DNA of 64,000 bases from an uncultured Chloroflexia bacterium (GCA_963734535.1 CAVTHS010000003.1:224001-288000); one strand, 5' to 3'. Shown: positions 11,637 to 27,223, counted from the first letter of the stretch. The notes: generated from the sequence alone by a model not told the origin. Program-made: numbers and translations.

Positions 11637-12821
11637 ATGGCCATCTACCTCGACCACGCGGCCACCACGCCGCTCCGCCACGAAGCGCTCGAGGCGATGC
11701 TCCCGTACCTTGGCGGCGCGTTCGGCAACCCGTCGTCCGCCCACTCGTTCGGACGCGCCGCCCGCAACGCGCTCGACGAGGCGCACGAGCGGCTGGCGAC
11801 GGCGCTGGGCGGCACCGCCCGCGAGATCGTGGTCACCTCCGGGGGAACCGAGGCCAACAACCTCGCGATCAAGGGGGCCGCATGGGCAGGCAAGGCGCGC
11901 GGCCATCGCCTGGTCACGAGTGCCGTGGAACACCACGCCGTCGGCCACACGATGCGGCACCTCGAGAAGTTCGGCTTCGAGGTCGTCGAGGTGCGGGTCG
12001 ACCGCCAGGGCCGCGTGGATCCCGACGAGCTGGACGCCGCGATCGACGATCGGACCATCCTGGTCTCGGTGATGCTCGCCAACAACGAGGTCGGCACGCT
12101 CCAACCGATCCGCGAGATCGCCGAACGGGTCCGGGCGCGGCGCGGCATCCTCCTCCACGTCGACGCCGTCCAGGCCGCCCCGACGCTCGATCTCGACGTG
12201 GGCGAGCTCGGGGCGGACCTCGTCACGATCTCGGCCCACAAGTTCGAGGGCCCCAAGGGCATCGGCGCGCTCTGGATCCGGCGCGGCACGCAGCTCATCG
12301 CGCAGCTCCACGGGGGAAGCCAGGAGCGGCACCGGCGGGCAGGCACCGAGAACGTTGCCGGTACCGTGGGCATGGCCGTCGCCTACGAGTGTGCCTGCGC
12401 GGACCGCCCCACGACCGCGATCCGGCTGCGCGCCCTGCGCTCGCGGCTTGCGGCCGCCTGCCTCGCGGTCGACGGCGTCGAGGTGACGGGCCACCCGACG
12501 GAGCGCCTTCCCGGTCTTCTCTCCCTGCGTGTGCAGGGCGCCGACGGCGTGGCGATCAGCGTCGCGCTCGACCTCGACGGGATCGCCGCCTCCACCGGGT
12601 CCGCCTGTTCGACGGGTTCTCCCGAGCCGTCTCACGTCCTCACCGCGATGGGCTACACGGACGCGGAGGCGCTCGGCGCGCTGCGCCTCTCGCTGGGCCG
12701 CGCGACCACGGACGCGGAGGTGAGCGAGGCGTGCCTCGTGGTGCCTCGGGTGATCGCCGAGATTCGCGCCGGATCGGTCGAACAGGCCGCGGATCCGCTC
12801 GGTGTACGGCTGGGGGCCTGA
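11637..12821 (+). CDS. iscS: Cysteine desulfurase (IscS/NifS type)
   Basis: YLDHAATTP, GNPSSAH, SAHKFEGPKG PLP lysine, STGSACS catalytic Cys. Confidence 0.95.
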   Translation: MAIYLDHAATTPLRHEALEAMLPYLGGAFGNPSSAHSFGRAARNALDEAHERLATALGGTAREIVVTSGGTEANNLAIKGAAWAGKARGHRLVTSAVEHHAVGHTMRHLEKFGFEVVEVRVDRQGRVDPDELDAAIDDRTILVSVMLANNEVGTLQPIREIAERVRARRGILLHVDAVQAAPTLDLDVGELGADLVTISAHKFEGPKGIGALWIRRGTQLIAQLHGGSQERHRRAGTENVAGTVGMAVAYECACADRPTTAIRLRALRSRLAAACLAVDGVEVTGHPTERLPGLLSLRVQGADGVAISVALDLDGIAASTGSACSTGSPEPSHVLTAMGYTDAEALGALRLSLGRATTDAEVSEACLVVPRVIAEIRAGSVEQAADPLGVRLGA

Positions 12822-12827
12822 GGCGCC

Positions 12828-13994
12828 GTGGCGCGCGTGCTCGTCGCGATGTCGGGCGGGGTGGACAGCTCCGTCGCCGCGGCGCTCGTGGCCGAGGCGG
12901 GGCACGACGTCGTCGGCGTGTGGATGCGCGTCCACGACGGAGCGGACGCATACTCGGAGCTGAAGAAGAGCTGCTGCTCGGCCGACGCGGCGGAGGACGC
13001 CCGGCGGGTGGCGGCACAGCTCGACGTCCCGTTCTACATCCTGAACCTGGAGCGGGAGTTCGAGGCGGGCGTCATCCGGCCGTTCCTCGCCGCGTACCTC
13101 GGCGGCGAGACGCCCAGCCCATGCGTCGACTGCAACAGCTACGTCAAGTTCGGGGCGCTCCTGGGGCGCGCACGCCGGCTCTACGGGTGCGATGCGGTGG
13201 CGACGGGGCACTACGCCCGCCGCGACACCGTGGCGGGCCCCGACGGCAGTCCCGTCCACCGGCTGCGGCGCGGCGCCGACCGGGCGAAGGACCAGGCCTA
13301 CTTCCTCTACGGCCTGCGCCAGGACCAGCTGGCGCATGCCTGGTTCCCGCTCGGCGAGCTGACGAAGGCGGAGGTCCGAGACCTTGCCCGGGAGCGCGGG
13401 CTGGCGACCGCGGAGAAGCCCGAGAGCATGGAGATCTGCTTTGTACCGACGGGTGACCCTCGCGACGCCTTGCGGGCGCGGACCGCCTGGCTGCCGGTCT
13501 CGGGCCCGGCGCTCGACGCGGAGGACGGACGGGTCGTCGGTTCGCACCAGGGCGCGGCTGGCTTCACGGTCGGGCAGCGTCGCGGACTGGGCATCGCCCT
13601 CGGCGAGCCCCGCTACGTGAGCCGGGTGGACCCGGGGGCGAACACGATCGTCCTGGCACGCCGTGCCGACCTCGAGACGCGCCGCTTCGCGATCGCCGAC
13701 GTGACGTTCCCGGCGGGACGGCCGCCCACCCCCGACGGCGGGTCGTTCGCCGCCCGCGCCCAGGTCCGCCACCGCGCGGAGGCGGTCCGGGCAACGGTAA
13801 GCCCGGCGGCCGACGCCCTCGGCGCGGCACAGTCCGGAGCCGGGGGTGCGCCATCCGGCAACGGGGCGCGCTGGGTCGTGGAGACCGAGGTCCCCGTGTG
13901 GGCCGCAGCGCCGGGCCAGGCGTGCGTCCTCTACGATCCCGATGACCCGGACCTCGTGGTGGGCGGCGGCCGGATCGTGCGCGACGACGGGTAG
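12828..13994 (+). CDS. mnmA: tRNA 2-thiouridylase MnmA
   Basis: [52 protein letters not shown]. Confidence 0.97.
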
Positions 13995-14004
13995 GGGAGG
14001 GGAC

Positions 14005-14310
14005 GTGCCGGAGATCGGGCCCTCGCTCGTCCTCGCGGTTCTGCTCGGGATCTTCTGGACCGCGGCGGCCGTGCTCGTCCGTGGCGCTGCCGGTGCCCGT
14101 CTGCCGTTCGTGATCCTGCTCGCGATCACGGGTGCGTGGGCCGGAGACGCAGTCGGCGGCCGAATCGGCGGCCCGTTCGATCTCCTGCGGATCGGCGACT
14201 TCCGGCTGCTGCCGGCCTCGCTCGGCGCGCTCGGCGGGATCCTCCTCGTGGTCCTCGTCTCCGTCCTCGGGCCGACACGGGCCGAAAGCGGTCCGGGACC
14301 GGATCGATGA
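14005..14310 (+). CDS. Small membrane protein (3 TM, GlsB/YeaQ-like)
   Basis: Hydrophobic segments; GGAGG RBS before GTG. Confidence 0.65.
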   Translation: MPEIGPSLVLAVLLGIFWTAAAVLVRGAAGARLPFVILLAITGAWAGDAVGGRIGGPFDLLRIGDFRLLPASLGALGGILLVVLVSVLGPTRAESGPGPDR

Positions 14311-14576
14311 GCCGCTGGTCCCCGGACAAACGCCCATCGCGGGATCGGCGATCGGGCGATGACGACCCGTTGGCGGACTTCGTCCGCGGCGCGACCGTCG
14401 GTGCGTTCGTGGGCGCGGCGATCGCCGGCTCGGCGGCCTGGCACCGCGTTCGGAAGCGCGTCGCGGCCGGGCGCGCGGGCTCCGCGGCCCAGCCGGCGGA
14501 CACGGCAGCCGTGGCAGAGACGTCAGCCGTGCCAGGGCCGCCCGCCCACGGTCACGTCGAGGTGCGCGGCCGCTAG
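14307..14576 (+). CDS. Small hypothetical protein with one TM segment
   Basis: ATGA overlap with upstream gene; FVRGATVGAFVGAAIAGS. Confidence 0.55.
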   Translation: MSRWSPDKRPSRDRRSGDDDPLADFVRGATVGAFVGAAIAGSAAWHRVRKRVAAGRAGSAAQPADTAAVAETSAVPGPPAHGHVEVRGR

Positions 14577-14631
14577 GCAGACAGGGACGCGGCCCGGGTC
14601 GACCCGGCGGGACGCGGGCCGCCGCCGATTC

Positions 14632-15123
14632 CTAGTTGCAGATCACCTTGCCTTCAACGGACTTGCCGGTCTCGGAATCGCTGCCGTTGAACGTCCAGGC
14701 ATGCGCGCTCGCGAACGAGATGCTGGCATTCAGGTCGGGCGCCTTCCACGTGACGCCGTCCATGACGCCCGAGGCCTCCGGCATGGTCGGCGGCGTGGAG
14801 TGCAGCCAGGCGAAGCTGGCCGAGTCGGAACCGTCGCGGCCGTCGACCTTGACGTTGATCGTCCCGTCAGCGATCGTCCCGTCGACCGCACAGGTCGCCG
14901 GATAGGTCTTCTCCTTCCCGTCGAGCGTCACGGTGATCGTCTCGGCCTGGCCGGAACCGCCGACCGCTGGCGAAGCGGCATCCTCCGTGGGTGTCGCCGC
15001 AACGCCGGCCGGGCTGGGTGAGGCGCCCTGACCTCCGCCGCTTGCCGGGGCCGGGGTCGAGCCGCCCCCGCATCCCGCCATGACGCCCGCCACCAGGAGA
15101 GCGACGCCGATTCTCCGAAACAC
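14632..15123 (-). CDS. Putative lipoprotein
   Basis: MFRRIGVALLVAGVMAGC lipobox, Pro/Ala/Ser linker, GGAGG RBS. Confidence 0.75.
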   Translation of the reverse strand: MFRRIGVALLVAGVMAGCGGGSTPAPASGGGQGASPSPAGVAATPTEDAASPAVGGSGQAETITVTLDGKEKTYPATCAVDGTIADGTINVKVDGRDGSDSASFAWLHSTPPTMPEASGVMDGVTWKAPDLNASISFASAHAWTFNGSDSETGKSVEGKVICN

Positions 15124-15290
15124 GTGAACCTCCGTCCCGGGTCCGTCCACGGACACCCCCGCGGCCAACCCCCCACGACAGGCTGATGATAGGCGGATCG
15201 CGGGACGTTCCGGGGGTCCCCGGCCCCCGTCGCAGATGACCCGCGGCACGGGTCGGGATCGCCGCGCGGCGTTCGCTACCATTACGCTCG

Positions 15291-18056
15291 ATGCCGACCC
15301 CGCCCGACATGCCCGATCGCGACCCCCGGATTGCGCCGCTCCCCGCGGCCGAGGTGCGCCGTCGGTTCCTCGCGTTCTTCGCCGCCCGGGGCCACACGGT
15401 GGTGCCGAGCGCGAGCCTCGTGCCGGCCGGCGACCAGACGCTCCTCTTCACGAACTCGGGCATGGTCCAGTTCAAGGAGGTCTTCACCGGCGTCGACAAG
15501 CGCAGCTACACGCGCGCCGTCGACGTCCAGCGCTGCCTGCGCGTGGCCGGCAAGCACAACGACTTCGAGGAGGTGGGTCGCTCGCCGCGCCACCACACGC
15601 TCTTCGAGATGATGGGCAACTGGAGCTTCGGCGACTACTTCAAGCGCGAGGCGATCCACTGGGCCTGGGAGTTCCTCACCGTCGAGATGGGAATCCCGGG
15701 CGAACGCCTGGCCGCCACGACCTACACGGACGACGAGGTTGCCTGGGCGATCTGGCGCGACGAGATCGGCCTGCCGCCCGAGCGGATGGCACGCTGGGGG
15801 AACGTCGAGGCCGGCGACGACAAGAACTTCTGGCGGATGGCCGAGACCGGGCCGTGCGGCCCGTGCAGCGAGGTTCATTACGACCGGGGCGCCCACCTCT
15901 CCGAGGGTCCCGAGTGCGTGCCGGACCACTCCGAGACGTGCCCGCGCTGGACGGAGATCTGGAACCTCGTGTTCCTGGAGTTCGACCAGCTGCCCGACGG
16001 CGCGCGCGTCCCGCTCCCGTTCACGAGCGTCGACACCGGACTCGGGCTGGAGCGCCTCGCGACCGTGCTCCAGGGCGTGCTCTCCAACTACGACACGGAC
16101 CTGTTCACGCCGATCCACGAGACGCTGCGACGGCTCCTGGGGCACGATCCCGAGATCTTCGAGGCCGAGCGCTTCAGCTACCAGGTGATCGCGGACCACA
16201 GCCGGGCGATGACGTTCCTGATCGCCGACGGGGTCCTCCCCGCGAACGAGGGCCGGGGTTACGTCCTGCGCCGGATCATCCGCCGCGCCGTCCGCCACGG
16301 CCGGCTCCTCGGGCGGCGCGAGCCGTTCCTCGTCGAGACCGCGGCCACGGTCGTCGAGGTGATGGGCGAGGCGTACCCGCTGCTGCGTGACGAACGCGCA
16401 CGCATCCTCGCCGCCATCTCGCGCGAGGAGGTGCAGTTCGCCCGGACGCTCGACGCCGGGACGGCCCAGCTCGAGGAGGCGCTCATTCCCCTGACAGACG
16501 CCGAGCGCGTGGTTGGCCGCCGGCCCGAGGACGTCGCACCCGACGCGCCGGTGCTGGCGGGCGGCTTCGCGTTCCGGCTCCACGACACGTACGGCTTCCC
16601 GATCGACCTCACGATCGAGCTCGCCGCCGAGCATGGCGTTCGCGTGGACCGCGCCGGCTTCGAGGTCGCGCTCGCCGAGCAGCGCGAGCGCAGCCGGGGC
16701 GGCCGCAAGGCCGAGCTGGCGCGGCACGCCCAGCTGACGGCGCAATACGAGGAGATCCTGCGCCGGGCGGGGGCGACGAGGTTCGACGGCTACGAGACGA
16801 CCACGGCAGAGGGCCGCGTGCTTGCGATCCTCCGCAACGGCACGGCGTACGACGAGCTCACCGGCTCCGGCGAGGCGGAGGTGATCCTGGACCGCACGCC
16901 GTTCTACGCGGAGGGCGGCGGGCAGGTCGGCGACGTCGGCGAGCTTCGCGAAGCGGGCGGCGGCTCGCCGCTCTTCGCGGTCGAGGAGACGTTCCGGCCG
17001 GCCGGGTCCCTCGTCGTCCACCGCGGAACCCTTCACGGCCGCATTCGTGTCGGCGAGACCGTGAGCGCCGTGGTCGACGCGGAGCGCCGGGCCCGCACGA
17101 TGCGCAACCATACCGGCACGCACCTGCTCCACCGCGCCCTGCGCAACGTCGCGGGGCCCGCGGCGCGGCAGGCCGGCTCGCTCGTCTCGCCCGACTACCT
17201 GCGGTTCGACTACCCGTTCGAGCGCGCCCTCACGGACGACGAGCGGCGCCGGATCGAGGACGAGGTCCGCCGGGTCATCCGCGAGGATCGCCCGGTGACC
17301 GTAGCCAACCTCGCGATGGCCGCCGCCATCGACGCTGGTGCGGACGCGTTCTTCGACGAGAAGTACGGCGAGACGGTCCGGACCGTGCGCGTCGCGGACT
17401 ACAGCTTCGAGCTCTGCGGCGGAACGCACTGCCGCGCATCCGGCCAGGTCGGAAGCTTCGTGATCACCGCGGACCGGAGCATCGGCTCGGGGATGCGGAG
17501 GATCGAGGCCCTCACCGGCGACGCGGCCGACGATCACCTGCGCGCCCGCGCCGATCTCCTCGAGAACGTCGCGGAGCGCCTCGGCGCGCAGACCGTGGAC
17601 GCCGTGCCGGAACGGATCGCCGCGCTGGAGACGGAGCTCCGCGAGGCGAAACGGCGGTTGCGGGCGGGTGCGGGCGCCGCCCTCCCGAAGCCGGCCGAGC
17701 TCGCGGCGGCGGCGCGGGAGGTCGCGCCCGGCGTCCGGCTGGTCCTGCATGCGGCCCCATGGACCTCGATCGAGGAGCTCAAGGCGGCCGCCAAGGAGAC
17801 CCGCGGCCTCCTGCCCTCGGGCGTGATCGCGCTCGGGCTCGATGCGGACGAGCCGCAGCTCTTCGTGGGCGTCTCGGACGACCTCGTGGCGCGAGGCGTC
17901 GCGGCCGGGGACCTCGTTCGGGCTGCGATGGCGCACCTCGACGGGAAGGGCGGCGGTCGACCCGAGATGGCCCAGGGCCGCGGCTCGCGGCGCGACGGCC
18001 TTCCCGCCGCGCTGGAGGCGATCGGCGCGGCGCTCGCCGCGATCGGCGGCGGCTAA
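15291..18056 (+). CDS. alaS: Alanine--tRNA ligase
   Basis: LLFTNSGMVQFK, HHTLFEMMGNWSFGDYFK, DTYGFP, editing domain NHTGTHLLH and ELCGGTH, C-terminal GGGRPEMAQG. Confidence 0.98.
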   Translation: MPTPPDMPDRDPRIAPLPAAEVRRRFLAFFAARGHTVVPSASLVPAGDQTLLFTNSGMVQFKEVFTGVDKRSYTRAVDVQRCLRVAGKHNDFEEVGRSPRHHTLFEMMGNWSFGDYFKREAIHWAWEFLTVEMGIPGERLAATTYTDDEVAWAIWRDEIGLPPERMARWGNVEAGDDKNFWRMAETGPCGPCSEVHYDRGAHLSEGPECVPDHSETCPRWTEIWNLVFLEFDQLPDGARVPLPFTSVDTGLGLERLATVLQGVLSNYDTDLFTPIHETLRRLLGHDPEIFEAERFSYQVIADHSRAMTFLIADGVLPANEGRGYVLRRIIRRAVRHGRLLGRREPFLVETAATVVEVMGEAYPLLRDERARILAAISREEVQFARTLDAGTAQLEEALIPLTDAERVVGRRPEDVAPDAPVLAGGFAFRLHDTYGFPIDLTIELAAEHGVRVDRAGFEVALAEQRERSRGGRKAELARHAQLTAQYEEILRRAGATRFDGYETTTAEGRVLAILRNGTAYDELTGSGEAEVILDRTPFYAEGGGQVGDVGELREAGGGSPLFAVEETFRPAGSLVVHRGTLHGRIRVGETVSAVVDAERRARTMRNHTGTHLLHRALRNVAGPAARQAGSLVSPDYLRFDYPFERALTDDERRRIEDEVRRVIREDRPVTVANLAMAAAIDAGADAFFDEKYGETVRTVRVADYSFELCGGTHCRASGQVGSFVITADRSIGSGMRRIEALTGDAADDHLRARADLLENVAERLGAQTVDAVPERIAALETELREAKRRLRAGAGAALPKPAELAAAAREVAPGVRLVLHAAPWTSIEELKAAAKETRGLLPSGVIALGLDADEPQLFVGVSDDLVARGVAAGDLVRAAMAHLDGKGGGRPEMAQGRGSRRDGLPAALEAIGAALAAIGGG

Positions 18057-18066
18057 GGCCGCGCCG

Positions 18067-19329
18067 ATGGCCTTCCTGCGCCGGTTCTGGCAGCGCGACA
18101 GCAGCGCCCAGCTCGCCGCATGCACCGCGCTCGACATCGGGACCGAGTTCGCGAAGGCGCTCGTCTTCGAGATCGATGCCGAGAGTCGCGGCACGGTGCG
18201 CGGTGTGGGCCGCAAGCGCCAGGGCCTCGCCCACATGCAGTCGGGAACGGTGGCGGACATCGCTGCGGTCGTCGACAACTGTGCCGTCGCACTCCAGGAG
18301 GCCGAGGAGATGGCCGGCTTCCGGCCCACGCAGGTCGTGATCGGGATCGCCGGCGAGCTCGTCAAGGGGTTCACGACGTCGCATACCCAGGAGCGCCGGA
18401 AGCCGGACGTCGCGATCACGGACGCCGAGCTGCAGAAGCTCATCGACGGGGTGCAGCGCGCCGCGCTCATCGAGGCGGAACGGGCGATCACCTGGGAGAC
18501 CGGCCTGCCCAACGTCGACGTGCGGCTGGTCCACGCCGCGGTCACGTCGGCGAGCATCGACGGGTATGCCGTCACGAACCCGGTGGGCTTCCAGGGCCGC
18601 CACGTGAAGATCGGGATCTTCAACGCCTTTGCCCCGCTGGTCCACCTCGGCGCGCTGGAGAGCGTGGCCGCCCAGCTCGACCTGGAGCTGCTCGAGATCG
18701 TCGCCGAGCCGTACGCGGTCGCCCGGGTGCTCGCCTCGGAGCAGGTCCAGCAGGCGGGCGCCCTCTTCGTCGACATCGGGGGCGGCACGACCGACGTCGC
18801 GCTGGTCCGGGCCGGTGGCATCGAGGGAACCCGGATGTTCGCCCTCGCCGGCCGGGCCTTCACGAAATCGCTCGCCGACCGCCTGGACCTGCCGTTCCCG
18901 CGCGCCGAGGCGCTCAAGGTCGACTACGCGCGCGGGCTGGCGATGCCCGAGCACGACGCGATCGCGGAGATCGTGGGCGACGACGTCGCGGTATGGGCCG
19001 CCGGCGTCGAGCTGGTCCTCGACGAGCTCGCCGGGGGCGATCTCCTGCCGGGACGGATCTACCTCTGCGGGGGCGGCTCGCGACTGCCCGAGACCGCGAC
19101 CGCGCTGCGCGATCCCCGTTTCTGGAAGCGCCTGCCGTTCAGCCGGCCGCCGGAGGTCGTGGTGATGCAGCCCGCGATGGTGGAATCGATCACCGACGCC
19201 ACGAAGCTCCTCGTCGACCAGCAGGACGTCACGCCGCTGGGGCTTGCCTACCAGGCGATCGAGCTCCAGGCGGAGCAGGATGCGCTCGACGCCGCCCTCC
19301 GGCGGGTCCTGCGCGCCATGAAGCTGTAG
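18067..19329 (+). CDS. FtsA-like actin-fold ATPase (paralogue outside the dcw cluster)
   Basis: ALDIGT (phosphate 1), EAEEMAG..VVIGIAGE, VDIGGGTTD (phosphate 2), LCGGGSRL (adenosine). Confidence 0.85.
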   Translation: MAFLRRFWQRDSSAQLAACTALDIGTEFAKALVFEIDAESRGTVRGVGRKRQGLAHMQSGTVADIAAVVDNCAVALQEAEEMAGFRPTQVVIGIAGELVKGFTTSHTQERRKPDVAITDAELQKLIDGVQRAALIEAERAITWETGLPNVDVRLVHAAVTSASIDGYAVTNPVGFQGRHVKIGIFNAFAPLVHLGALESVAAQLDLELLEIVAEPYAVARVLASEQVQQAGALFVDIGGGTTDVALVRAGGIEGTRMFALAGRAFTKSLADRLDLPFPRAEALKVDYARGLAMPEHDAIAEIVGDDVAVWAAGVELVLDELAGGDLLPGRIYLCGGGSRLPETATALRDPRFWKRLPFSRPPEVVVMQPAMVESITDATKLLVDQQDVTPLGLAYQAIELQAEQDALDAALRRVLRAMKL

Positions 19330-19339
19330 CGTCGCCACG

Positions 19340-21181
19340 ATGGCCACCTTCTATCTCGACATCGACGACGAGATCACGTCCGCCGCCGCCCGCATCCGCG
19401 GGACCGCGGACCTCGTCGTGGTGCTGGTGCTGCCGGCCGGCTCGCGCATCGCGACCAGCCGGATCAACTTCCGGCTCCTAGCGCGGGAGGCACAGGAGCG
19501 GAGCCGGCGGCTGTCGATCGTGGCGCCCGATGCGGCGGCCCGCGCGCTCGCGGCGACCGCAGGGCTGCCCGTCTTCGCGTCCACGATGGAGTACGAGGCG
19601 TCCCTGCCCGGCCGGCCCGACGGTGGGGATGCGGCCGCAGAGCCGATGCAGCGGGCCACGCCCGCGCCTGGGCTGCCTGCCGCGGGAGCTGCTGCGGGAG
19701 CCCCTGCTGCGGGCGCCACCGGCGCGGGAGCTCCTGCCGGGGGCACGTCCCCCCGGGCGGGCAGCGCGGCTCGCGCGGCAACGACCGTCGCGCCGCCAGC
19801 CCTCACGCCACACGTGCCCGCGTCCGATACGGGGAAGTCCTTCGAAGCGTCACACGCCGGCCCGACCCGCCTGGGCCCGACCACGGGGCTCGGCGCGGAA
19901 CGAGGCCAGGGCGCGGCGCCGCGACCACGCCACCGCCGCCGGACTGCCGTCCTCGTCGGGCTGCTCGTCCTGGCATTCCTCGGTGTCGCAGGGGGCGCGG
20001 CGGCCTACCTGCTCTTGCCCACGGCGTCGATCGTGCTGACCGTCCGGTCTGCGCCGCTTCCACCGGTCACCTTCGTCGTCACGGCTGACCCCGACGTCAC
20101 GGCCCCGGACCCTGCCGCGGCCGTCGTCCCGGCGACTCGCCTGGAGCTCCCGCTCGCGGCGAACGGCACGTTCAAGGCGTCGGGCAAACGGGTCGACGAG
20201 GCGGCCGCCGTCGGCAGCGTGCGTTGGACGAACTGCGATCCGACGCGGTCCTACACGATTCCCCGCGGCACGCTGGTTCGCACCGCGGCGGGCGTCGCGT
20301 TCGCGATCGACGAGGCTGTCTTCCTGCCGGTGGCGATCCTCAACCCCCCGCAGATCACCTGCCAGAACCGGACCGTGACCATCACCGCGTCGAAGGCCGG
20401 CCCGGATTCGAACGTCGCCGCCGGGACGATCTCGGTCATCCCCGGGCAGTACAACAGCGTGGTGATCTCCGTCCGGAACCCGGCCCCGACCAGCGGCGGG
20501 AAACGGGACGAGTTCCCGAAGGTCGTCCAGAAGGACGTCACGGCGGCGCTTGCCGCCCTCGGAAAGCAGATCGACGCGCAGCTCGCGACAGCCGCCGCCG
20601 CACCGGCAGGGCTGCCCGCCGGGAGCACGCCGTTCCCCGAGACGGCGACGCGCGGCGCGGCCACGGCGACCGTGGACCCCGCCACGCTCATCGACCAGGA
20701 GGTCCCGCAGTTCGACCTTGGCGTGACGGCGACCGGGACCGTCGTCACCGTCGACCAGGCACCGATCCTCGCGCTCGGCCAGGCGCGTGTTGCGGCCGCC
20801 GTCCCCGCCGAGCGGGACCTGGTCGCCGGCTCGGCGGTGGTAACCCTCGGACCCGGCACCGTCGACGGGCAGCGCGTTCGCTTCGGCGTGACGGCCCGCG
20901 CCGACACCGCGCCGCGCATCGACGAGGCGGCCCTCCGGACCGAGCTGAAGGGACGCTCGAAGGTGGAGGCCGAGGCGATGCTCGGCCCCCTCGGTGATGC
21001 GACCGTGACGCTCTGGCCCGGCTGGGCGACGACGATCCCGACGTTCGACGCGCGGGTGGACCTGCGCGTGGAAGGGCTTCCCGGCCCGAACGCGACGGCG
21101 TCGCCGGCCGTGACCCCGACCCCGACCCCGGCGCCGACCCCGACCCCGACCCCGGCGCCACCGGCGACGACGGCTCCGTGA
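19340..21181 (+). CDS. Single-pass membrane protein with an extracytoplasmic baseplate J/gp47-like domain
   Basis: N-terminal YLDIDDEITS..INFRLL domain, Ala/Pro linker, TM segment, then A.GSVRWTN..TIPRGTLV.T..GVAF..VTITASKAGPDSNVAAGTI..VRNPAPTSGG, matching the baseplate-J pattern; PT-repeat tail. Confidence 0.7.
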   Translation: MATFYLDIDDEITSAAARIRGTADLVVVLVLPAGSRIATSRINFRLLAREAQERSRRLSIVAPDAAARALAATAGLPVFASTMEYEASLPGRPDGGDAAAEPMQRATPAPGLPAAGAAAGAPAAGATGAGAPAGGTSPRAGSAARAATTVAPPALTPHVPASDTGKSFEASHAGPTRLGPTTGLGAERGQGAAPRPRHRRRTAVLVGLLVLAFLGVAGGAAAYLLLPTASIVLTVRSAPLPPVTFVVTADPDVTAPDPAAAVVPATRLELPLAANGTFKASGKRVDEAAAVGSVRWTNCDPTRSYTIPRGTLVRTAAGVAFAIDEAVFLPVAILNPPQITCQNRTVTITASKAGPDSNVAAGTISVIPGQYNSVVISVRNPAPTSGGKRDEFPKVVQKDVTAALAALGKQIDAQLATAAAAPAGLPAGSTPFPETATRGAATATVDPATLIDQEVPQFDLGVTATGTVVTVDQAPILALGQARVAAAVPAERDLVAGSAVVTLGPGTVDGQRVRFGVTARADTAPRIDEAALRTELKGRSKVEAEAMLGPLGDATVTLWPGWATTIPTFDARVDLRVEGLPGPNATASPAVTPTPTPAPTPTPTPAPPATTAP

Positions 21182-21795
21182 GGCGGCTCCTCGGGATCGA
21201 CCTCGGAACGCGACGGATCGGACTGGCAATCGCCGAGGCCGGTGCGCTCCGCGCGCGCCCGCTCGCGACGCTCGGCCGTGGCCGCTCGATCGACGCCGAC
21301 ACAGACGCGGTCGGTCAGGTGGCAGCCGCCAACGGCATCGGGGAGCTGGTCGTGGGCCTGCCCCTGGACATGTCCGGGGAGGAAGGGCCGGCAGCCCTCG
21401 CCGCCCGGCAGTGGGCGGTCGCGATCGCGGACGCCACGGGCCTGCCCGTCACGCTGCGCGACGAGCGCCTCTCCAGCCACGTGGCGGAGGGCCGCGTCGG
21501 TCGGGCGAAGCGCGGGCCCTCCGGAGGCCCGCCCGGCCCGGTCCGTCGGGCGGCGAATCGGGCCCGGATCGATCGCGAGGCGGCGGGCGTGATCCTCGAG
21601 GACGAGCTCGCGGCCCGGGAGCTGGGGCTGCCCGGGGAGCGGATCGTGGCGGCGGACGCCCGGGGGGATCGCTCGGGCCGCGCTCCGGCGGAGTCGGGTA
21701 CCCTTGGGGTGCATCCGGACGACGCCGAAGGCCATGCCCGCGGTCCCTCCCGGTCTCCCGGGACCGGGCCTGGCCCCCACGAGGAAACCCGATGA
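21178..21795 (+). CDS. ruvX: Putative pre-16S rRNA nuclease / Holliday junction resolvase RuvX (YqgF)
   Basis: LLGIDLGTRRIGLA, VVGLPLDMSG, DERLSS, IDREAAGVIL. Confidence 0.92.
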   Translation: MRRLLGIDLGTRRIGLAIAEAGALRARPLATLGRGRSIDADTDAVGQVAAANGIGELVVGLPLDMSGEEGPAALAARQWAVAIADATGLPVTLRDERLSSHVAEGRVGRAKRGPSGGPPGPVRRAANRARIDREAAGVILEDELAARELGLPGERIVAADARGDRSGRAPAESGTLGVHPDDAEGHARGPSRSPGTGPGPHEETR

Positions 21796-23195
21796 CGATC
21801 CGCGGCGGCGGCAGTCCGCGAGACGACCGCGACGCAGCGCCGGAACGCACCTCGATGGCGCATCGCCTGGGCGACGCGGCGGTGCGGTCCCGACCCGCCC
21901 GCACGGCCGGCGCGGCCCCGGGCCGCTCGGGCACGATCTCCGCCTCCGAGATGGTCGGTCGGGGACCCCGCGGACGGGGATCCGGGTCCCTCCGGTTCAT
22001 CCTGTTCCTGCTGCTGGGCGCAGGGCTCGTGCTCGCCCTCCTCGCGACGATCGGACGTCCGCTCGTGCGCGGCGTCGTCGTCGACCTGGCGGGCGACAAC
22101 CCGGGCGCGCTCGGCATCGGGTTCGTGGCGGACATGGTGCGCGAGGACCTGGGCAGCGCCCTGACGGACCCCGCGGGGTCGAACGCGACGGACGTCCCCT
22201 TCGCCGTCGCGACCGGCGACACCGCGACCACGATCGCCTCGCGGCTCGCCGAAGTGGGAGTGCTCCGCGATCCGCGCGCCTTCGTGCTCATCTCCCTCGA
22301 ACGGAACGCGACCACGAGCTACCGGGCCGGCGACTTCGTGGTCCGCCAGACGATGACGCCGGAACAGCTGTCCGCGGCGCTCCTGGCGCCGCCGGCGCCG
22401 GACCTGCACATCGTGCTGTCGATCCGAACCGGGCTTCGCCTCGAGCAGATCGCGGCGCTCATCCAGGCAAAGCCCGCGGACCGCGGGCTCGCCTCTCTTG
22501 CCATGTCCGCCTCCGCGTTCCTGGACCTGGTCCGCACGCCGCCGGCGTCACTCCTGCGGGATTACCCGTGGCTGCAGATCCCCAAAGGGGGAACGCTCGA
22601 GGGCTACCTGGCAGCGGGCGACTACCCGATCCTCCCCGACGTGACGCCGGACCAGCTGGTCCGAATGATGCTCGACCGGTTCATCAGCGAGGTCGGGGCG
22701 GAGCGCATGAACGTCGCCGCGTCCCGCGGGCTCACCTGGTACCAGGTCCTCAGCCTGGCTTCGATCGTCGAGCAGGAGGCGGCCGTCGACTCCGAGCGCC
22801 CGCTGATCGCGGGCGTCTACCAGAACCGCATCCTCAGGGGCATGATCCTCAACGCGGACCCAACCGTCATCTACGGAAACGACACCCTGAACCTTGCCGA
22901 CCTCGCGATGCCCGCATGGGCGACCTACAGCTTCTGGAACCTGGTCGGGTCCCCGCTTGCCAGCGTGAAATTCCCGCCGGCGCTGGCGGGCTTCCAGACG
23001 TACCAGCACCCGGGCCTGATCCCCGCGCCGATCTGCACGCCAACCGTGGCTTCCATCGACGCCGCGCTCGCGCCCAACACCAAGGCCGGCTACCTCTACT
23101 TCGTGGCCAAGCAGGACGGCAGCAGGACGCACGCCTTCGCGAAGACCGCTGCCGAGCACGAAGCCAACCTGCGGAAATACGGGTACATCAAGTGA
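21792..23195 (+). CDS. mltG: Endolytic transglycosylase MltG
   Basis: N-terminal TM, LEGYL, LASIVEQEA, IAGVYQNR..GM.LNADPTV.Y, YLYFVA, HAFAKT..EH. Confidence 0.93.
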   Translation: MTIRGGGSPRDDRDAAPERTSMAHRLGDAAVRSRPARTAGAAPGRSGTISASEMVGRGPRGRGSGSLRFILFLLLGAGLVLALLATIGRPLVRGVVVDLAGDNPGALGIGFVADMVREDLGSALTDPAGSNATDVPFAVATGDTATTIASRLAEVGVLRDPRAFVLISLERNATTSYRAGDFVVRQTMTPEQLSAALLAPPAPDLHIVLSIRTGLRLEQIAALIQAKPADRGLASLAMSASAFLDLVRTPPASLLRDYPWLQIPKGGTLEGYLAAGDYPILPDVTPDQLVRMMLDRFISEVGAERMNVAASRGLTWYQVLSLASIVEQEAAVDSERPLIAGVYQNRILRGMILNADPTVIYGNDTLNLADLAMPAWATYSFWNLVGSPLASVKFPPALAGFQTYQHPGLIPAPICTPTVASIDAALAPNTKAGYLYFVAKQDGSRTHAFAKTAAEHEANLRKYGYIK

Positions 23196-24418
23196 CCCGG
23201 GGCGGACCGGACGGCCTGCCGGTCGCGGCCGATTTCGCGCCGCCGCCCGGCCCCCGCCGGAGACGGGCCTGGGACGAGGCGGACAGGGCGGCCCGTCCTG
23301 CCAGGCTCGCGCGCCTTCGTGCTCACCTCTCCGCGGAGGGGATCGATGCGTACTTCGGCCTCGGCCGCGAGGAGATCCGGTACCTGGCCGGGGTCGCCCT
23401 CGGCGACGGCGAGGAGAAGGTCGCCGGCCATTCCGGCCGGTTCCTCGTGTCCGCGGAGGCAGTGGTCGTGCTCGCCGACAGCCGCTACACGCTCCAGGCC
23501 CGCCGCGAGGCACCCGATGCGCGCGTCGAGGTGGTGACCTACGACCTGGCCGCCCGGTGGGCCGAGCTGTGCGGCTCGATCGGCGCCCGCCGGGTTGCGG
23601 TGCCCGCCGCCGACATCAGCCATGCGCTCTGGGGAGAGCTGGCCGCGGCCGCCCCCGGCGTGGAGCTGGTGCCTGCCGGCCCCTGGGTCGCCGAGGATCG
23701 CGCGGTCAAGGAGCCGGCCGAGATCGAGCGGATCGCGGCCGCCTGCGCCGTCGCGGATCGCGCGCTCGCGATGCTCCTGCCCGAGATCCGCCCCGGCGTG
23801 ACCGAGGCATCGCTCGCGTGGCGCCTGGAGACGATGATGCGGGAGGGTGGCGCCGAGGCGCTCGCCTTCGATGTGGCGGCGCTCGCTGGCCCCCAGGCCG
23901 CGCTGCCCCACGGATCACCGGGCGAGCGGCGCGTTCGCACGGGCCAGGTGCTGCTCTTCGACTTCGGGGCGCAGGTCGCGGGTTATCGGAGCGACATGAC
24001 GCGGACGCTCTTCGTCGGCGAGCCGCGACCGCGCGACCTGGCGGTCCACGAGCTGGTGGCGCGCGCCCAGGCGGCCACGATCGCGTACCTGGAGGCATCG
24101 CTGGCGGCCGGGACCGTCCCGAACGGGCGGGCGGCCGACGCGGCGGCGCGCGACGTCATCGCCGCGGCCGGCCACGGGCACCACTTCGGGCATGGCACCG
24201 GGCACGGGATCGGCCTCGCCACGCACGAGGCGCCGTCGCTCTCGCGCGTGGCGTCGGACGCGCCGCTGCCGAGCCCGACCGTCTTCTCCGTGGAGCCCGG
24301 CGTCTACCTCGACGGCCGGACGGGCGTCCGGATCGAGGATCTCGTCCACTTCGATGTGGCCGCGGGCCGGGTCGACCGTCTCACGCGCTTCCCTCGCGAG
24401 GTGCTCGTCGTCGGGTGA
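23192..24418 (+). CDS. Xaa-Pro aminopeptidase (M24B family)
   Basis: DSRY, LPHG, DFGA...GYRSDMTRT, HGTGHGIGL..HEAP, SVEPGVY, GVRIED. Confidence 0.93.
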   Translation: MTRGGPDGLPVAADFAPPPGPRRRRAWDEADRAARPARLARLRAHLSAEGIDAYFGLGREEIRYLAGVALGDGEEKVAGHSGRFLVSAEAVVVLADSRYTLQARREAPDARVEVVTYDLAARWAELCGSIGARRVAVPAADISHALWGELAAAAPGVELVPAGPWVAEDRAVKEPAEIERIAAACAVADRALAMLLPEIRPGVTEASLAWRLETMMREGGAEALAFDVAALAGPQAALPHGSPGERRVRTGQVLLFDFGAQVAGYRSDMTRTLFVGEPRPRDLAVHELVARAQAATIAYLEASLAAGTVPNGRAADAAARDVIAAAGHGHHFGHGTGHGIGLATHEAPSLSRVASDAPLPSPTVFSVEPGVYLDGRTGVRIEDLVHFDVAAGRVDRLTRFPREVLVVG

Positions 24419-24586
24419 CCGGGCCCGCTCGCCGGGGCGGCCGCGAGGCTCGTCCGGCAGGCACCCGGGTGCGTCGGGTCGGCCGGCGCGGGGAGTGGGT
24501 CGGCCCGTCTGCTACGATCCATCGCACCATCACGATCAGCTGCGCCGGCGCGCGCCCATTCCCGCCGGCCCCCGAGGGAGCCTTCC

Positions 24587-25144
24587 ATGATCTCCACCGG
24601 CGAGCTGCACAAGGGCGTCGTCATCGAGCTCGACGGCGACCTCTGGCAGATTCTCGACTACCACCACATCAAGATGGGCCGTGGATCGGCCCAGGTCCGG
24701 ATCAAGCTCAAGAACGTGAAGAAGGGCTCGATCGTCGAGAAGTCCTTCCAGGCAGGCGAGCGGTGGCCGCGGGCACAGCTCGATCGGCGCCCGATCCAGT
24801 TCATGTACCGCGACGGCGACGCCTTCCACTTCATGGAGATGGAGACGTACGAGCAGTTCCACCTCAACGCGGACCAGCTCGAGGACGCCGTCAACTACAT
24901 GAAGGACGGCATGACGCTCGACCGGATCAGCTATGACGGTGAGACGCTCGGCGTGGAGCTCCCGATCACGGTGGACCTCCTGGTCGTCGGGACGGATCCC
25001 GGCTTCGCCGGCGACACCGCGACAGGCGCCCGCAAGCCCGCCACGACCGAGTCCGGCCTGATCGTGCAGGTGCCGCTCTTCGTGACCGAGGGCGACACCA
25101 TCCGCGTCGACACGCGCACTGGCGAGTACCAGACCCGGCTCTAG
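24587..25144 (+). CDS. efp: Translation elongation factor P
   Basis: HIKMGRGSAQVRIKLKN, TDPGFAGDT, VQVPLFV, VDTRTGEY. Confidence 0.97.
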   Translation: MISTGELHKGVVIELDGDLWQILDYHHIKMGRGSAQVRIKLKNVKKGSIVEKSFQAGERWPRAQLDRRPIQFMYRDGDAFHFMEMETYEQFHLNADQLEDAVNYMKDGMTLDRISYDGETLGVELPITVDLLVVGTDPGFAGDTATGARKPATTESGLIVQVPLFVTEGDTIRVDTRTGEYQTRL

Positions 25145-25194
25145 CTGCCTCCCCGGGCCGCCGCGAACCCCAGCCGAACGCCGGAGCTGCGTGC

Positions 25195-26634
25195 GTGCCC
25201 GACGACGAGCCGCCGGACTGGGCGCTCCCCGCGTGGGACGCGATCGACCTCGGGACGCGGCCCCCCGACCGATCGCGACCCGGCCGCCCCGCCGGCACGT
25301 TCGGGCTCCGGATCCTGGCCGTCACCGAGGTCACCCACGCGGTCCGCGACGCGCTTCGCGAGGATCCGCGGCTCGCCGACCTGTGGGTCGAGGGCGAGGT
25401 GGGCCGCGTGACGGTCAGCTCGGCAGGCCACGCCTACTTCACCCTGCGCGACGAGAAGAGCCAGCTCGCCTGCGTCTTCTTCCGCGAGGACCGACAGGCC
25501 AGCGCGTTCGAGCCGCAGTCAGGGATGCGGGTGATCGTGCATGGCCGGATCGACGTCTTCGACGCGCAGGGCGTCTACCAGTGCTATGTCGCCGCGATCC
25601 AGCCGGCGGGCTTCGGTGACCTGGCCCTCCGATTCGAGCAGACGAAGGCGCGCCTCGCGGCGGAGGGGCTGTTCGACGCGAGGCGCAAGCGGCCGCTCCC
25701 CGTGCGTCCGGCGACGATCGCCGTCGTCACCAGCCTGTCGGGCGCGGTGATCCACGACATCCGGCGCGTGCTGGCGCGGCGCTGGCCCCTTGTCCGCGTC
25801 GTCGTGAGCGCCTGTCGCGTCCAGGGGGACGGCGCCGCCGAGACGATCGTGGCGGCGCTTGGCCGGCTGGCCCGCTACGACGCCGCCTGCCGCGCGAACG
25901 ACCGGGCGGCGGATGCCCCGGGGCTCGTCATCGTTGCCCGCGGCGGCGGTTCGCTCGAGGATCTCTTCGCCTTCAATGACGAGCGCGTCGTGCGTGCCAT
26001 CGCCGGCCATCCGGTGCCGGTGGTGAGCGGCATCGGCCACGAGACGGACGTGACGCTCTCGGACTTCGCGGCCGACCTCCGTGCGCCGACGCCGTCGGCG
26101 GCCGCCGAGCTCGCCGTGCCCGACCGGCTCGAGGTCGTGATGGCGCTCCGCGGGCGGCGTCGCAGGCTCGACGAGGCGGCGACGCGCGCCCTTGCCGGTT
26201 CCTCCCGTCGGGTGGCCGCGGAACGGCGCGCACTCGAGGGGCTGCGGCCCGCGACGCGGCTGGCGGCCGCCCGGGAGCGGGCCGGGTACCTCCTGGACCG
26301 CGCGACCGCTGCCATCTCGGGGCGGATTGCCGTCGATCGCCGCGCCACCGAGCACGCCGCGCGCGACCTCGGGCCACTCGTCGGGGGACGCCTCCGGCGC
26401 GAACGCGGGCGGCTCGCGACGGCGTCGGCAGCCCTCGGCGCGCTGGGTCCGGAGGCCACCCTCGCCCGCGGCTACGCGATCGTGCGGCGCGCGGAGGATG
26501 GAGCGATCCTCCGCGATCCCGCCGAGTCGCCGGCCGGGACGCGGCTCCGCCTGCGCCTGGCCCGGGGCGAGCTGGCCGCCCGCGCCGAGAGCGTCGAGCC
26601 TGCCGCCCATTCGGGGGGCGAAGCACGTGGCTGA
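25195..26634 (+). CDS. xseA: Exodeoxyribonuclease VII large subunit
   Basis: WVEGEV, GHAYFTLRD, RGGGSLEDLFAFNDE, SGIGHETD, RAPTPSAAAE. Confidence 0.95.
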   Translation: MPDDEPPDWALPAWDAIDLGTRPPDRSRPGRPAGTFGLRILAVTEVTHAVRDALREDPRLADLWVEGEVGRVTVSSAGHAYFTLRDEKSQLACVFFREDRQASAFEPQSGMRVIVHGRIDVFDAQGVYQCYVAAIQPAGFGDLALRFEQTKARLAAEGLFDARRKRPLPVRPATIAVVTSLSGAVIHDIRRVLARRWPLVRVVVSACRVQGDGAAETIVAALGRLARYDAACRANDRAADAPGLVIVARGGGSLEDLFAFNDERVVRAIAGHPVPVVSGIGHETDVTLSDFAADLRAPTPSAAAELAVPDRLEVVMALRGRRRRLDEAATRALAGSSRRVAAERRALEGLRPATRLAAARERAGYLLDRATAAISGRIAVDRRATEHAARDLGPLVGGRLRRERGRLATASAALGALGPEATLARGYAIVRRAEDGAILRDPAESPAGTRLRLRLARGELAARAESVEPAAHSGGEARG

Positions 26635-26824
26635 CCTGGTGGTCTTCGTCGCGCTCGTCGGGCTCATCGGTGCGGCCGGGGTCCTGCTTGGTATGCTCGC
26701 GGCGCGGCGGCTTGGCGCCTGGGACGACCGGCGATCCGCCGCCGCGGACGCAGCCACGGCCCCGGGCATCTTCGGGCCGGCGATCGACGACCTGGGCCAG
26801 GATGGAGGCGAGACCCTTGACTGA
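26627..26824 (+). CDS. Small single-TM hypothetical protein (65 aa) between xseA and xseB
   Basis: LVVFVALVGLIGAAGVLLGMLAARR; overlaps both neighbours. Confidence 0.55.
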   Translation: MADLVVFVALVGLIGAAGVLLGMLAARRLGAWDDRRSAAADAATAPGIFGPAIDDLGQDGGETLD

Positions 26825-27110
26825 GGCGCTCGTGGCGCTCGAGACCCTGACCTTCGACGCGGCCCTGGCCGAGCTCGAGCGGACCGTCGCGGAGCTCGAG
26901 GCGGGCGGCCTGCCGCTGGAGCAGACGATCGCCCGCTACGAGCGGGGCGTCGCCCTGGAGCAGCGCTGCGAGCAGCTCCTCGCCGATGCCGAGCTGCGCG
27001 TCCGGCGACTCGTCGAGGGGGCGCGAGGGGCGCTGGAGGTGGCCGAGCTCCGGCTCGACCCCGACGCGGCGGAGACGCCGTCGGGCGCCCTCCCGGGGGC
27101 CGGAGAGTAG
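26817..27110 (+). CDS. xseB: Exodeoxyribonuclease VII small subunit
   Basis: TFDAALAELERTVAELEAG.LPLE..IARYERG..L...C...L..AE. Confidence 0.92.
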   Translation: MTEALVALETLTFDAALAELERTVAELEAGGLPLEQTIARYERGVALEQRCEQLLADAELRVRRLVEGARGALEVAELRLDPDAAETPSGALPGAGE

Positions 27111-27223
27111 ACTCGCGGGATCGCCCGGCGGGCACCAACGAGGGTCTCCGTCCTCGGCGAGCGTCATTCGATACGAAGCCGCGTCCCGCGGCGTACGAGC
27201 ACGCCGAACCAAGGAGCCAGCGC

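Follow-up and report, generated by a model that had tools for sequence, protein, structure and literature searches.

A candidate pair of an FtsA-paralogue ATPase and a bitopic envelope protein between alaS and ruvX in Chloroflexota

Introduction

Actin-fold ATPases that act at the membrane with a bitopic partner form a recurring theme, of which FtsA-FtsN, PilM-PilN and MreB-RodZ are the closest described examples to the system treated here. FtsA ends in an amphipathic helix used for membrane binding and contacts the C-terminal peptide of FtsZ by its subdomain 2B, and FtsN is bitopic, with a short cytoplasmic N-terminal tail and an external SPOR domain. PilM, an actin-fold ATPase of SHS2 type, has its gene immediately ahead of that for the bitopic PilN, whose N-terminus is a short peptide; MreB docks on the cytoplasmic part of the bitopic RodZ, which has a helix-turn-helix. 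Very high conservation is typical of cytoskeletal proteins. We describe two adjacent genes (positions 18067 to 21181) in a stretch of 64,000 nucleotides from an uncultured Chloroflexia bacterium (GCA_963734535.1 CAVTHS010000003.1:224001-288000; hereafter the window). They encode P0001, an actin-fold ATPase here named FtsAL, and P0002, a BpJ-like bitopic protein here called the partner.

The pair is a real, widespread and uncharacterised variant of the actin-ATPase and bitopic-partner theme. The best overall explanation, which we hold to be narrowly probable, is a conserved two-gene cassette of Chloroflexota made up of an FtsA-paralogue ATPase and a bitopic envelope partner, and the evidence points to a cell-envelope module, not a phage remnant. 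By analogy, the module most resembles FtsA-FtsN, PilM-PilN and MreB-RodZ. An earlier reading made from the sequence alone (the sequence-only reading) had proposed a two-part trans-envelope module in which the ATPase positions a domesticated baseplate fold; a module of two parts at the membrane is likely on the evidence below, and the domesticated baseplate is not supported.

Public records name FtsAL "cell division protein FtsA" or "FtsA domain-containing protein" and the partner "baseplate J/gp47 family protein" or "hypothetical protein"; the FtsA label hides a distinct protein family, and the baseplate name can make the partner look like a prophage gene. Full-text literature searches, with supplementary files outside their reach, found no paper on the pair; the literature on Baseplate_J/PF04865 mostly concerned phages or contractile injection systems (CIS), and none of it this pair, among the matches listed. 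The passages of PMC10608941 in which FtsA is scored by TIGR01174 make no mention of a paralogue.

Results

FtsAL orthologs (profile A2, E<=1e-50) were found in 92 genomes of a phylum sample of 301, as a single copy in 91 and as two contig-split fragments in G084; the tallies take in five unpublished genomes (G038, G145, G173, G227 and G272), from which no loci were used and on which nothing beyond these counts rests. A gene with the N-terminal domain (N-domain) of the partner lies immediately downstream of FtsAL, on the same strand, in 85 of the 92. Of these cases, 60 were placed by coordinates (the present genome, G000, included), 20 of 20 by fetched loci (chosen by hand among FtsAL-positive genomes for which no partner coordinate had been listed before) and 5 by combined profile tallies. 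The remaining seven fell at contig breaks or in unlisted places (G084, G127, G172, G183 and G192) or were left out as unpublished (G173 and G272), and no FtsAL was demonstrably without a partner among the 92 genomes, these 7 not being placed. All 12 FtsAL-positive families identified were also partner-positive.

It is conceivable that the two are mere neighbours in an old, packed housekeeping cluster (alaS-...-ruvX-mltG-pepP-efp), with FtsAL acting elsewhere (for example in the divisome or elongasome), the partner acting alone or with, for example, canonical FtsA, and no contact between them. We consider this rather unlikely. Against it stand the adjacency just described, a median gap from FtsAL stop to partner start of 10 nt (55 related loci), and the joint absence of both genes from two separate genera with intact flanks: G133 and G269 (genus g9, same order) and G046 and G106 (genus g12, same class). 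In these four genomes alaS directly abuts ruvX, neither gene was found at the locus (no HMM match at E<=1) or genome-wide, and the order mnmA-alaS-ruvX-pepP-efp-xseA is kept. The N-domain, moreover, stays beside FtsAL even where the external domain (ectodomain) of the partner has diverged past recognition: it was present downstream of FtsAL in 20 of 20 fetched loci, including four (L115, L116, L125 and L126) in which the ectodomain profile fails, as it does in L094.

Adjacency, joint absence and N-domain persistence suggest that the two genes probably form a functional pair; the co-conservation on which the sequence-only reading had staked its module is found in the genomes. Compared between families, the N-domains were 31.4% identical with FtsAL present and 25.0% identical with FtsAL absent, whereas ectodomain identity did not differ (23.1% versus 24.0%); the N-domain gap lends weak support to pairing. 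From these sequence patterns the N-domain is the likely FtsAL interface, and direct binding of FtsAL to it has, in our judgement, just short of an even chance.

The partner is the more widespread of the two. It was found in at least 183 of the 301 genomes (profile A1, a lower bound from a stricter first look), and the partner family had at least 1269 matches among 8000 scored candidates and 3819 representatives at E<=0.001 in a 50%-identity library. Record names in the family are from Chloroflexota, mostly Candidatus Limnocylindrales (the genome of the window is itself of Limnocylindria type), and a profile scan of genome contigs returned Chloroflexota only among the best 80 of 525. FtsAL and the partner were found in every one of 80 related loci, arranged as alaS-FtsAL-partner-ruvX; of the other genes, ruvX was detected in 78, alaS in 73, pepP in 73, efp in 64, xseA in 51, mnmA in 47 and mltG in 44, the misses being largely contig ends or divergence. 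A further 20 loci from across the phylum were hand-picked, not drawn at random, on long contigs from a range of families. Matches to the ectodomain and N-domain profiles were each present in 19 of them, ruvX lay downstream in 19, and alaS was detected in 16. Only 8 of the 20 had a close FtsAL ortholog; in a ninth (G210) a very divergent actin-fold gene takes that slot. This gene (L089:5291-6559, plus strand; family f53), between alaS and the partner, encodes 422 aa with 28% identity to FtsAL, a different C-terminus and a very long tree branch.

We read the partner in the alaS-ruvX slot as the older and wider feature, and FtsAL as what may be a lineage-restricted addition, or a gene lost in other lineages. 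The pair had been described earlier as inserted in alaS-ruvX-mltG; the location holds, with the amendment that the partner, whether or not FtsAL accompanies it, has long resided there across most of the phylum, and that FtsAL would be the addition. Atlas listings give, as leads only, look-alike clusters of FtsAL in Saccharimonadota and Peregrinibacteriota and of the partner in Saccharimonadota and Minisyncoccota.

MltG was found in 264 of the 301 genomes. Among the 20 MltG-negative genomes listed, the partner occurs in G213 alone, where a contig end accounts for the missing MltG; in family f19 (closed genomes of 1.4 to 1.9 Mb) both partner and MltG are absent (0 of 9 each). The pattern of partner and MltG, taken with gene order, is circumstantially in keeping with a role requiring a cell wall. 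Action of the module on wall growth or division, judged from the same gene order and phyletic pattern, is a serious possibility that we would place below an even chance.

Several observations weigh against the cassette as a coupled envelope system, and some of them favour the view of FtsAL and partner as mere neighbours. Because synteny extends over the whole alaS...xseA block (80 of 80 related loci), the two genes are partly neighbours by inheritance, and their adjacency does not favour the partner over alaS or ruvX; nor are related genomes independent samples. The difference in N-domain conservation is small (31% versus 25%) and confounded by phylogeny. In many families (among them f9, f12, f15, f20, f36 and f47) a partner with a recognisable N-domain occurs without FtsAL, from which it follows that the N-domain has a role that does not need FtsAL. 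Five FtsAL-negative genomes gave a best P0001 match of only 28 to 32% identity, which in four of the five (G206, G278, G267 and G228) fell on the coordinates of canonical FtsA. The partner is absent from many MltG-positive families (f2, f4, f6, f8, f16, f25, f27 and f30; f13 has it in 1 of 18) and is therefore not a general MltG cofactor. The FtsA-like region of FtsAL is itself partial: Pfam SHS2_FTSA gave 13.6 bits against a cut-off of 25.4, and residues 293 to 420, in a further difference from FtsA, align to no FtsA model.

Both open reading frames (ORFs) of the cassette were confirmed on the plus strand where the sequence-only reading had placed them (Table 1), as were the three nucleotide-binding motifs that it had picked out in FtsAL: ALDIGTE (residues 21 to 27), VDIGGGTTD (235 to 243) and LCGGGSRLPE (333 to 342). 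The phosphate 1, phosphate 2 and adenosine motifs of the FtsA/PilM group are thus all present, and the three motifs are invariant in an alignment of 20 orthologs from 7 GTDB families (D23-G25-T26; D236-G238-G239-G240-T241-T242-D243; G335-G336). FtsAL matched the Pfam FtsA family PF14450 with 50.7 bits (cut-off 31.8) and NCBIfam ftsA TIGR01174 with 107.4 bits, under the cut-off of 175.85 (106.1 in the genome search). Its best models and structures are those of FtsA (solved as 7q6f, 7q6g and 7q6d), with 7q6f the best solved relative (E 5e-15 over residues 20 to 292), and the TIGR01174 and 7q6f alignments run continuously through residues 20 to 292, the region of FtsA's SHS2/1C insert included. 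MreB models gave 24 to 30 bits (TIGR00904, 24.2 bits against a cut-off of 365.75), and PilM, MreB and EutJ models all scored far under the FtsA models. By their curated models, FtsAL lies outside FtsA, PilM and MreB; as judged from its sequence, it is an ancient, very slowly evolving FtsA paralogue, an actin-fold ATPase, putatively of SHS2 type, with intact nucleotide-binding motifs.

That FtsAL is a paralogue follows from the presence, in the same genome, of an ftsQ-ftsA-ftsZ cluster apart from it and of two mreB genes. The canonical cluster lies on contig C10 (FtsA 397.4 bits with TIGR01174) and the two MreB genes elsewhere (479 to 481 bits); ftsZ matches fell only on C10, and the window has no ftsZ, ftsQ or other dcw gene, as had been noted earlier. 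FtsAL is accordingly not the genome's only FtsA, and it differs from FtsA of the FtsA-FtsN pair in scoring under the ftsA equivalog cut-off, in lying outside the dcw cluster and in standing beside a separate canonical FtsA. Canonical FtsA above the cut-off was also present in 7 of 7 FtsAL-positive genomes tested. In a quick maximum-likelihood tree, the canonical FtsA proteins formed a clade (SH-aLRT 97), a branch of about 4.3 changes per site (support 98) lay between them and all FtsAL rows, and FtsAL was nearer FtsA than MreB; of the phylogeny against FtsA, PilM, MreB and EutJ suggested earlier, this covers FtsA and MreB, the rows lacking PilM and EutJ. A second FtsZ-like stretch was seen on contig C10 (364695-365663), about 100 kb from canonical ftsZ, split over different frames into three pieces (191, 75 and 42 bits); a frameshifted paralogue, a pseudogene and an assembly error are all conceivable explanations.

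The four highest helical hydrophobic moments among 407 windows of 14 residues all lie within residues 404 to 420 of FtsAL, and this C-terminal amphipathic motif is conserved across families in the ortholog alignment. The helix, an end of the kind that FtsA has, is a candidate membrane-targeting or partner-binding tail; since it is amphipathic and basic, FtsAL would most likely work at the inner face of the membrane. FtsAL is also the most conserved gene of the locus (median identity 82%, against 78% for EF-P, 72% for AlaS and 43% for the partner in 80 loci), with identity above AlaS in 62 of 62 loci and above EF-P in 42 of 50. Such conservation is a likeness to MreB-RodZ, as is the arrangement in which a bitopic protein would bind a membrane actin homologue through its cytoplasmic domain; the differences are the low MreB scores and the presence of two real MreB genes elsewhere.

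An actin-fold ATPase, putatively of SHS2 type, directly upstream of a bitopic partner also recalls PilM and PilN (2ych and 3jc8), and the two proteins might, like that pair, form an assembly platform for a type IV pilus or a related filament. The topology of the partner resembles that of PilN, PilM_2 matches are frequent in Atlas clusters of FtsAL look-alikes, and there is a weak PilM similarity, with scores that are nonetheless far under the cut-offs (TIGR01175, 27.1 bits against 133; PF11104, 13.3 bits against 27) and under those of the FtsA models. The neighbours are alaS and ruvX, and no flanking pilus genes were seen in 124 loci with nine window-gene probes (alaS, ruvX, mltG and others), the other ORFs of these loci not being scanned for pilus genes. 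No true PilM was found in the genome itself, and the scores and context of FtsAL led to its rejection as a PilM stand-in. The N-domain of the partner is a folded one of 88 aa, not the short N-terminal peptide of PilN, and of T2SSF genes the genome shows just two, both single-domain and on another contig. We regard a pilus platform as very improbable. The two T2SSF genes, which we take to be Tad-like, are adjacent (81 and 74 bits; L150/L151, G000 contig C14:231-236 kb) and lie about 10 kb from one mreB.

The partner begins with a compact N-domain (MATFYLDIDDEITS...SRINFRLL), followed by a linker of 112 residues that holds 30 Ala, 19 Gly and 17 Pro. It has one hydrophobic span (approximately residues 203 to 226; highest Kyte-Doolittle value 2.42 at residues 203-204), preceded by RPRHRRR, which by the positive-inside rule places the N-terminus in the cytoplasm. 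The protein is thus predicted to be bitopic, with a cytoplasmic N-terminus, one transmembrane (TM) span and an external C-terminal domain; its only two Cys are at 299 and 341. Mean pairwise identity in the partner family was 63.7% in the N-domain, 39 to 46% in the external parts and 21.6% in the linker, and 12 columns of the N-domain are invariant in the partner alignment; E11, T13, R36, R41 and N43 are invariant residues. Hydrophobicity, composition and conservation thereby agree with the layout proposed earlier (N-domain, linker, one TM span, external domain).

The N-domain (97 aa searched) had no match at E<=10 among PDB sequences, and a Pfam scan found no family covering residues 1 to 88; nor did Pfam find in P0002 a helix-turn-helix of the RodZ type, a further difference from MreB-RodZ. 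A search for the N-domain in shorter proteins gave 464 matches, with only apparent fragments or partial calls, and no new architecture, among the 120 listed. With FtsN the partner shares bitopic topology, a cytoplasmic N-terminus and an external domain; it differs in having a folded 88-aa N-domain and a Baseplate-J-type barrel in place of a short tail and a SPOR domain. Partners of family f23 are longer (873 to 1018 aa), with about 400 extra residues between N-domain and ectodomain, and in the one f23 partner scanned (L107:7343-10060) these gave no Pfam match.

The ectodomain contains a barrel related to phage baseplates. P0002 matched Pfam Baseplate_J PF04865 with 27.4 bits (cut-off 21.1) over residues 288 to 387 and profile positions 21 to 109 of 255, and 42 of 48 partner family members did so as well (best E 4e-15). 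PHROG 6, "baseplate wedge subunit", matched the same residues (E 2.1e-12), and the best PDB profile matches of the partner, gp47 9ki1_H (E 0.024) and ORF62 9euf_C (E 0.046), were confined to query positions 281 to 388; the next best match for the barrel was the GlxA beta-barrel PF21110 (9 of 48 members). Because the match is confined to residues 288 to 388, the homology covers one barrel domain of about 100 residues, with the motif ...A.G.V.f...tIPaGT...F.t...v.V.A...G..GNV..., and not the whole external region. The baseplate J/gp47 pattern reported by the sequence-only reading is therefore real as a PF04865 and PHROG 6 match and does not extend over the external domain as a whole. A PASTA identity for the C-terminal external subdomain was considered and rejected: 1 of 48 members matched PASTA (E 0.007), and residues approximately 501 to 582 gave only a chance metallo-beta-lactamase match against PDB (E 0.37).

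The same ectodomain occurs in other Chloroflexota behind an N-terminal Ser/Thr kinase domain (Pkinase), in three proteins of 836 to 920 aa (Table 1), and such a fusion is also indicated, as a lead, by an Atlas listing. Its presence on Ser/Thr kinases makes the ectodomain look like a portable envelope-facing module, not a baseplate. PASTA repeats form the external part of wall-sensing kinases. The kinase fusions are comparable with such PASTA kinases (PknB, StkP and PrkC) by analogy only, the same ectodomain being external on a Hanks kinase; there is no credible PASTA homology, and the protein in the window has the N-domain in place of the kinase. Some genomes of family f23 have up to four matches to the partner profile.

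That the 613-aa gene is a baseplate remnant of a prophage or CIS, with the ATPase as unrelated cargo, is suggested by the Baseplate_J and PHROG 6 matches and by the name "baseplate J/gp47 family protein" of its relatives at NCBI. The partner covers only about one third of the Pfam profile, however; it is membrane-anchored through a TM segment and has a cytoplasmic domain. It is chromosomal, with the GC content of its flanks, and sits in the alaS-to-ruvX slot in 120 of 120 loci examined across the phylum (80/80, 20/20 and 20/20), and the probes used revealed no further tail genes. The genome also holds a genuine baseplate-J gene, on contig C8, with no pairwise similarity to P0002. A remnant of this kind is scarcely credible to us; as far as the sequence matches reach, P0002 is not a baseplate protein beyond one barrel domain. 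The earlier proposal of a domesticated baseplate fold, possibly a ring or sheet, likewise loses its footing, with only a barrel of about 100 aa matching and the ectodomain fused to Hanks kinases elsewhere.

The C8 gene lies outside the window (L005:1270-3219, minus strand; G000 contig C8, about 389.3-391.3 kb) and encodes 649 aa. Its matches are longer and stronger than those of P0002 (PF04865, 56 bits over profile positions 73 to 238; PHROG 6, 74 bits), and a phage-tail-like or contractile-injection cluster is its probable setting. A paralogous relation to P0002 was rejected for want of pairwise similarity. A neighbouring gene has a zinc-ribbon match.

On the plus strand the gene order is mnmA, alaS, P0001, P0002, ruvX, mltG, M24 peptidase, efp and xseA (coordinates in Table 1). 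Gaps of 10 nt separate the alaS stop from the FtsAL start and the FtsAL stop from the P0002 start. The P0002 stop is shared with the ruvX GTG start in a GTGA overlap, and ruvX ends at 21795, its stop overlapping a candidate mltG start (ATG) at 21792, so the tight packing described earlier (partner 10 bp downstream, overlapping ruvX, and ruvX overlapping mltG) is borne out. The GC content of the region is about 0.74, with the same composition as its flanks. A promoter and terminator scan of 12000-27500 gave 0 promoter-like sites and no plus-strand terminator, not above shuffles, and is uninformative for a genome this GC-rich. Between mnmA and alaS, on the minus strand, lies an ORF of 216 aa (14632-15282) whose N-terminus resembles a lipoprotein signal (...LLVAGVMAGCGGG...) and is followed by a Gly/Ser/Pro-rich stretch.

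Table 1. Coordinates of the genes and protein features at the FtsAL locus (window positions) and of the kinase-ectodomain fusions (locus positions)
Feature	Position	Strand	Basis
mnmA	12828-13994	+	
alaS, alanyl-tRNA synthetase, conserved upstream neighbour	15291-18056	+	921-aa ORF
FtsAL (P0001), 420-aa divergent FtsA-type actin-fold ATPase	18067-19329	+	FtsA model and structure matches, nucleotide-binding motifs
FtsAL C-terminal amphipathic basic helix, residues 404-420 (...ALRRVLRAMKL)	19276-19326	+	hydrophobic moment, conservation
BpJ-like bitopic protein (P0002), 613 aa: N-domain, linker, predicted TM span, external domain	19340-21181	+	
Predicted cytoplasmic N-domain, residues 1-88	19340-19603	+	no Pfam/PDB match; highest conservation in the protein
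Low-complexity Ala/Gly/Pro-rich linker, residues 89-200	19604-19939	+	composition
Predicted single transmembrane span, residues ~203-226	19946-20017	+	Kyte-Doolittle
Predicted external domain, residues 227-577	20018-21070	+	profile from alignment A1 columns
Baseplate-J-type beta-barrel, residues 288-388	20201-20503	+	PF04865, PHROG 6, PDB profile matches
Pro/Thr-rich C-terminal tail, residues 578-613	21071-21178	+	sequence; variable among homologs
ruvX, YqgF-type nuclease	21178-21795	+	PF03652, 93.3 bits
mltG, YceG family	21792-23195	+	PF02618, 209.7 bits; candidate ATG start at 21792
Ser/Thr kinase with BpJ-like ectodomain in place of the N-domain (family f23, larger genomes)	L127:2298-4808	+	
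Ser/Thr kinase with BpJ-like ectodomain in place of the N-domain (family f23, larger genomes)	L128:2845-5607	-	
Ser/Thr kinase with BpJ-like ectodomain in place of the N-domain (family f23, larger genomes)	L129:2635-5217	-	

Discussion

The mechanism that we propose for the cassette has the bitopic protein reading or binding a component of the cell envelope through its ectodomain; through its N-domain it would recruit or regulate FtsAL, or be positioned by it. A bolder version, which we think improbable and offer as speculation, would add FtsAL to FtsA and MreB as the third actin-like cytoskeletal protein bound to the membrane in Chloroflexota, polymerising under that membrane and coupled by the N-domain to a wall-reading ectodomain. 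The pair would then be a trans-envelope system that sets where glycan strands finish or are inserted (MltG being encoded two genes downstream) or where cells divide, and it may be shared with Patescibacteria (Saccharimonadota and Peregrinibacteriota).

Little is known of the cell biology of Chloroflexota, which abound in soils, sediments and waters; FtsAL is present in about one third of the phylum-wide sample (92 of 301). Two carriers have closed genomes of one contig each (G111 and G138), and genetics and imaging would be feasible should these strains be in culture. The module would also bear on the minimal cell biology of Patescibacteria, provided that the Atlas leads hold. The pair would give a first functional context for the Baseplate-J-type barrel outside phage tails, Ser/Thr kinases included, and as a testable candidate it may represent a new means of linking actin-like proteins with the envelope.

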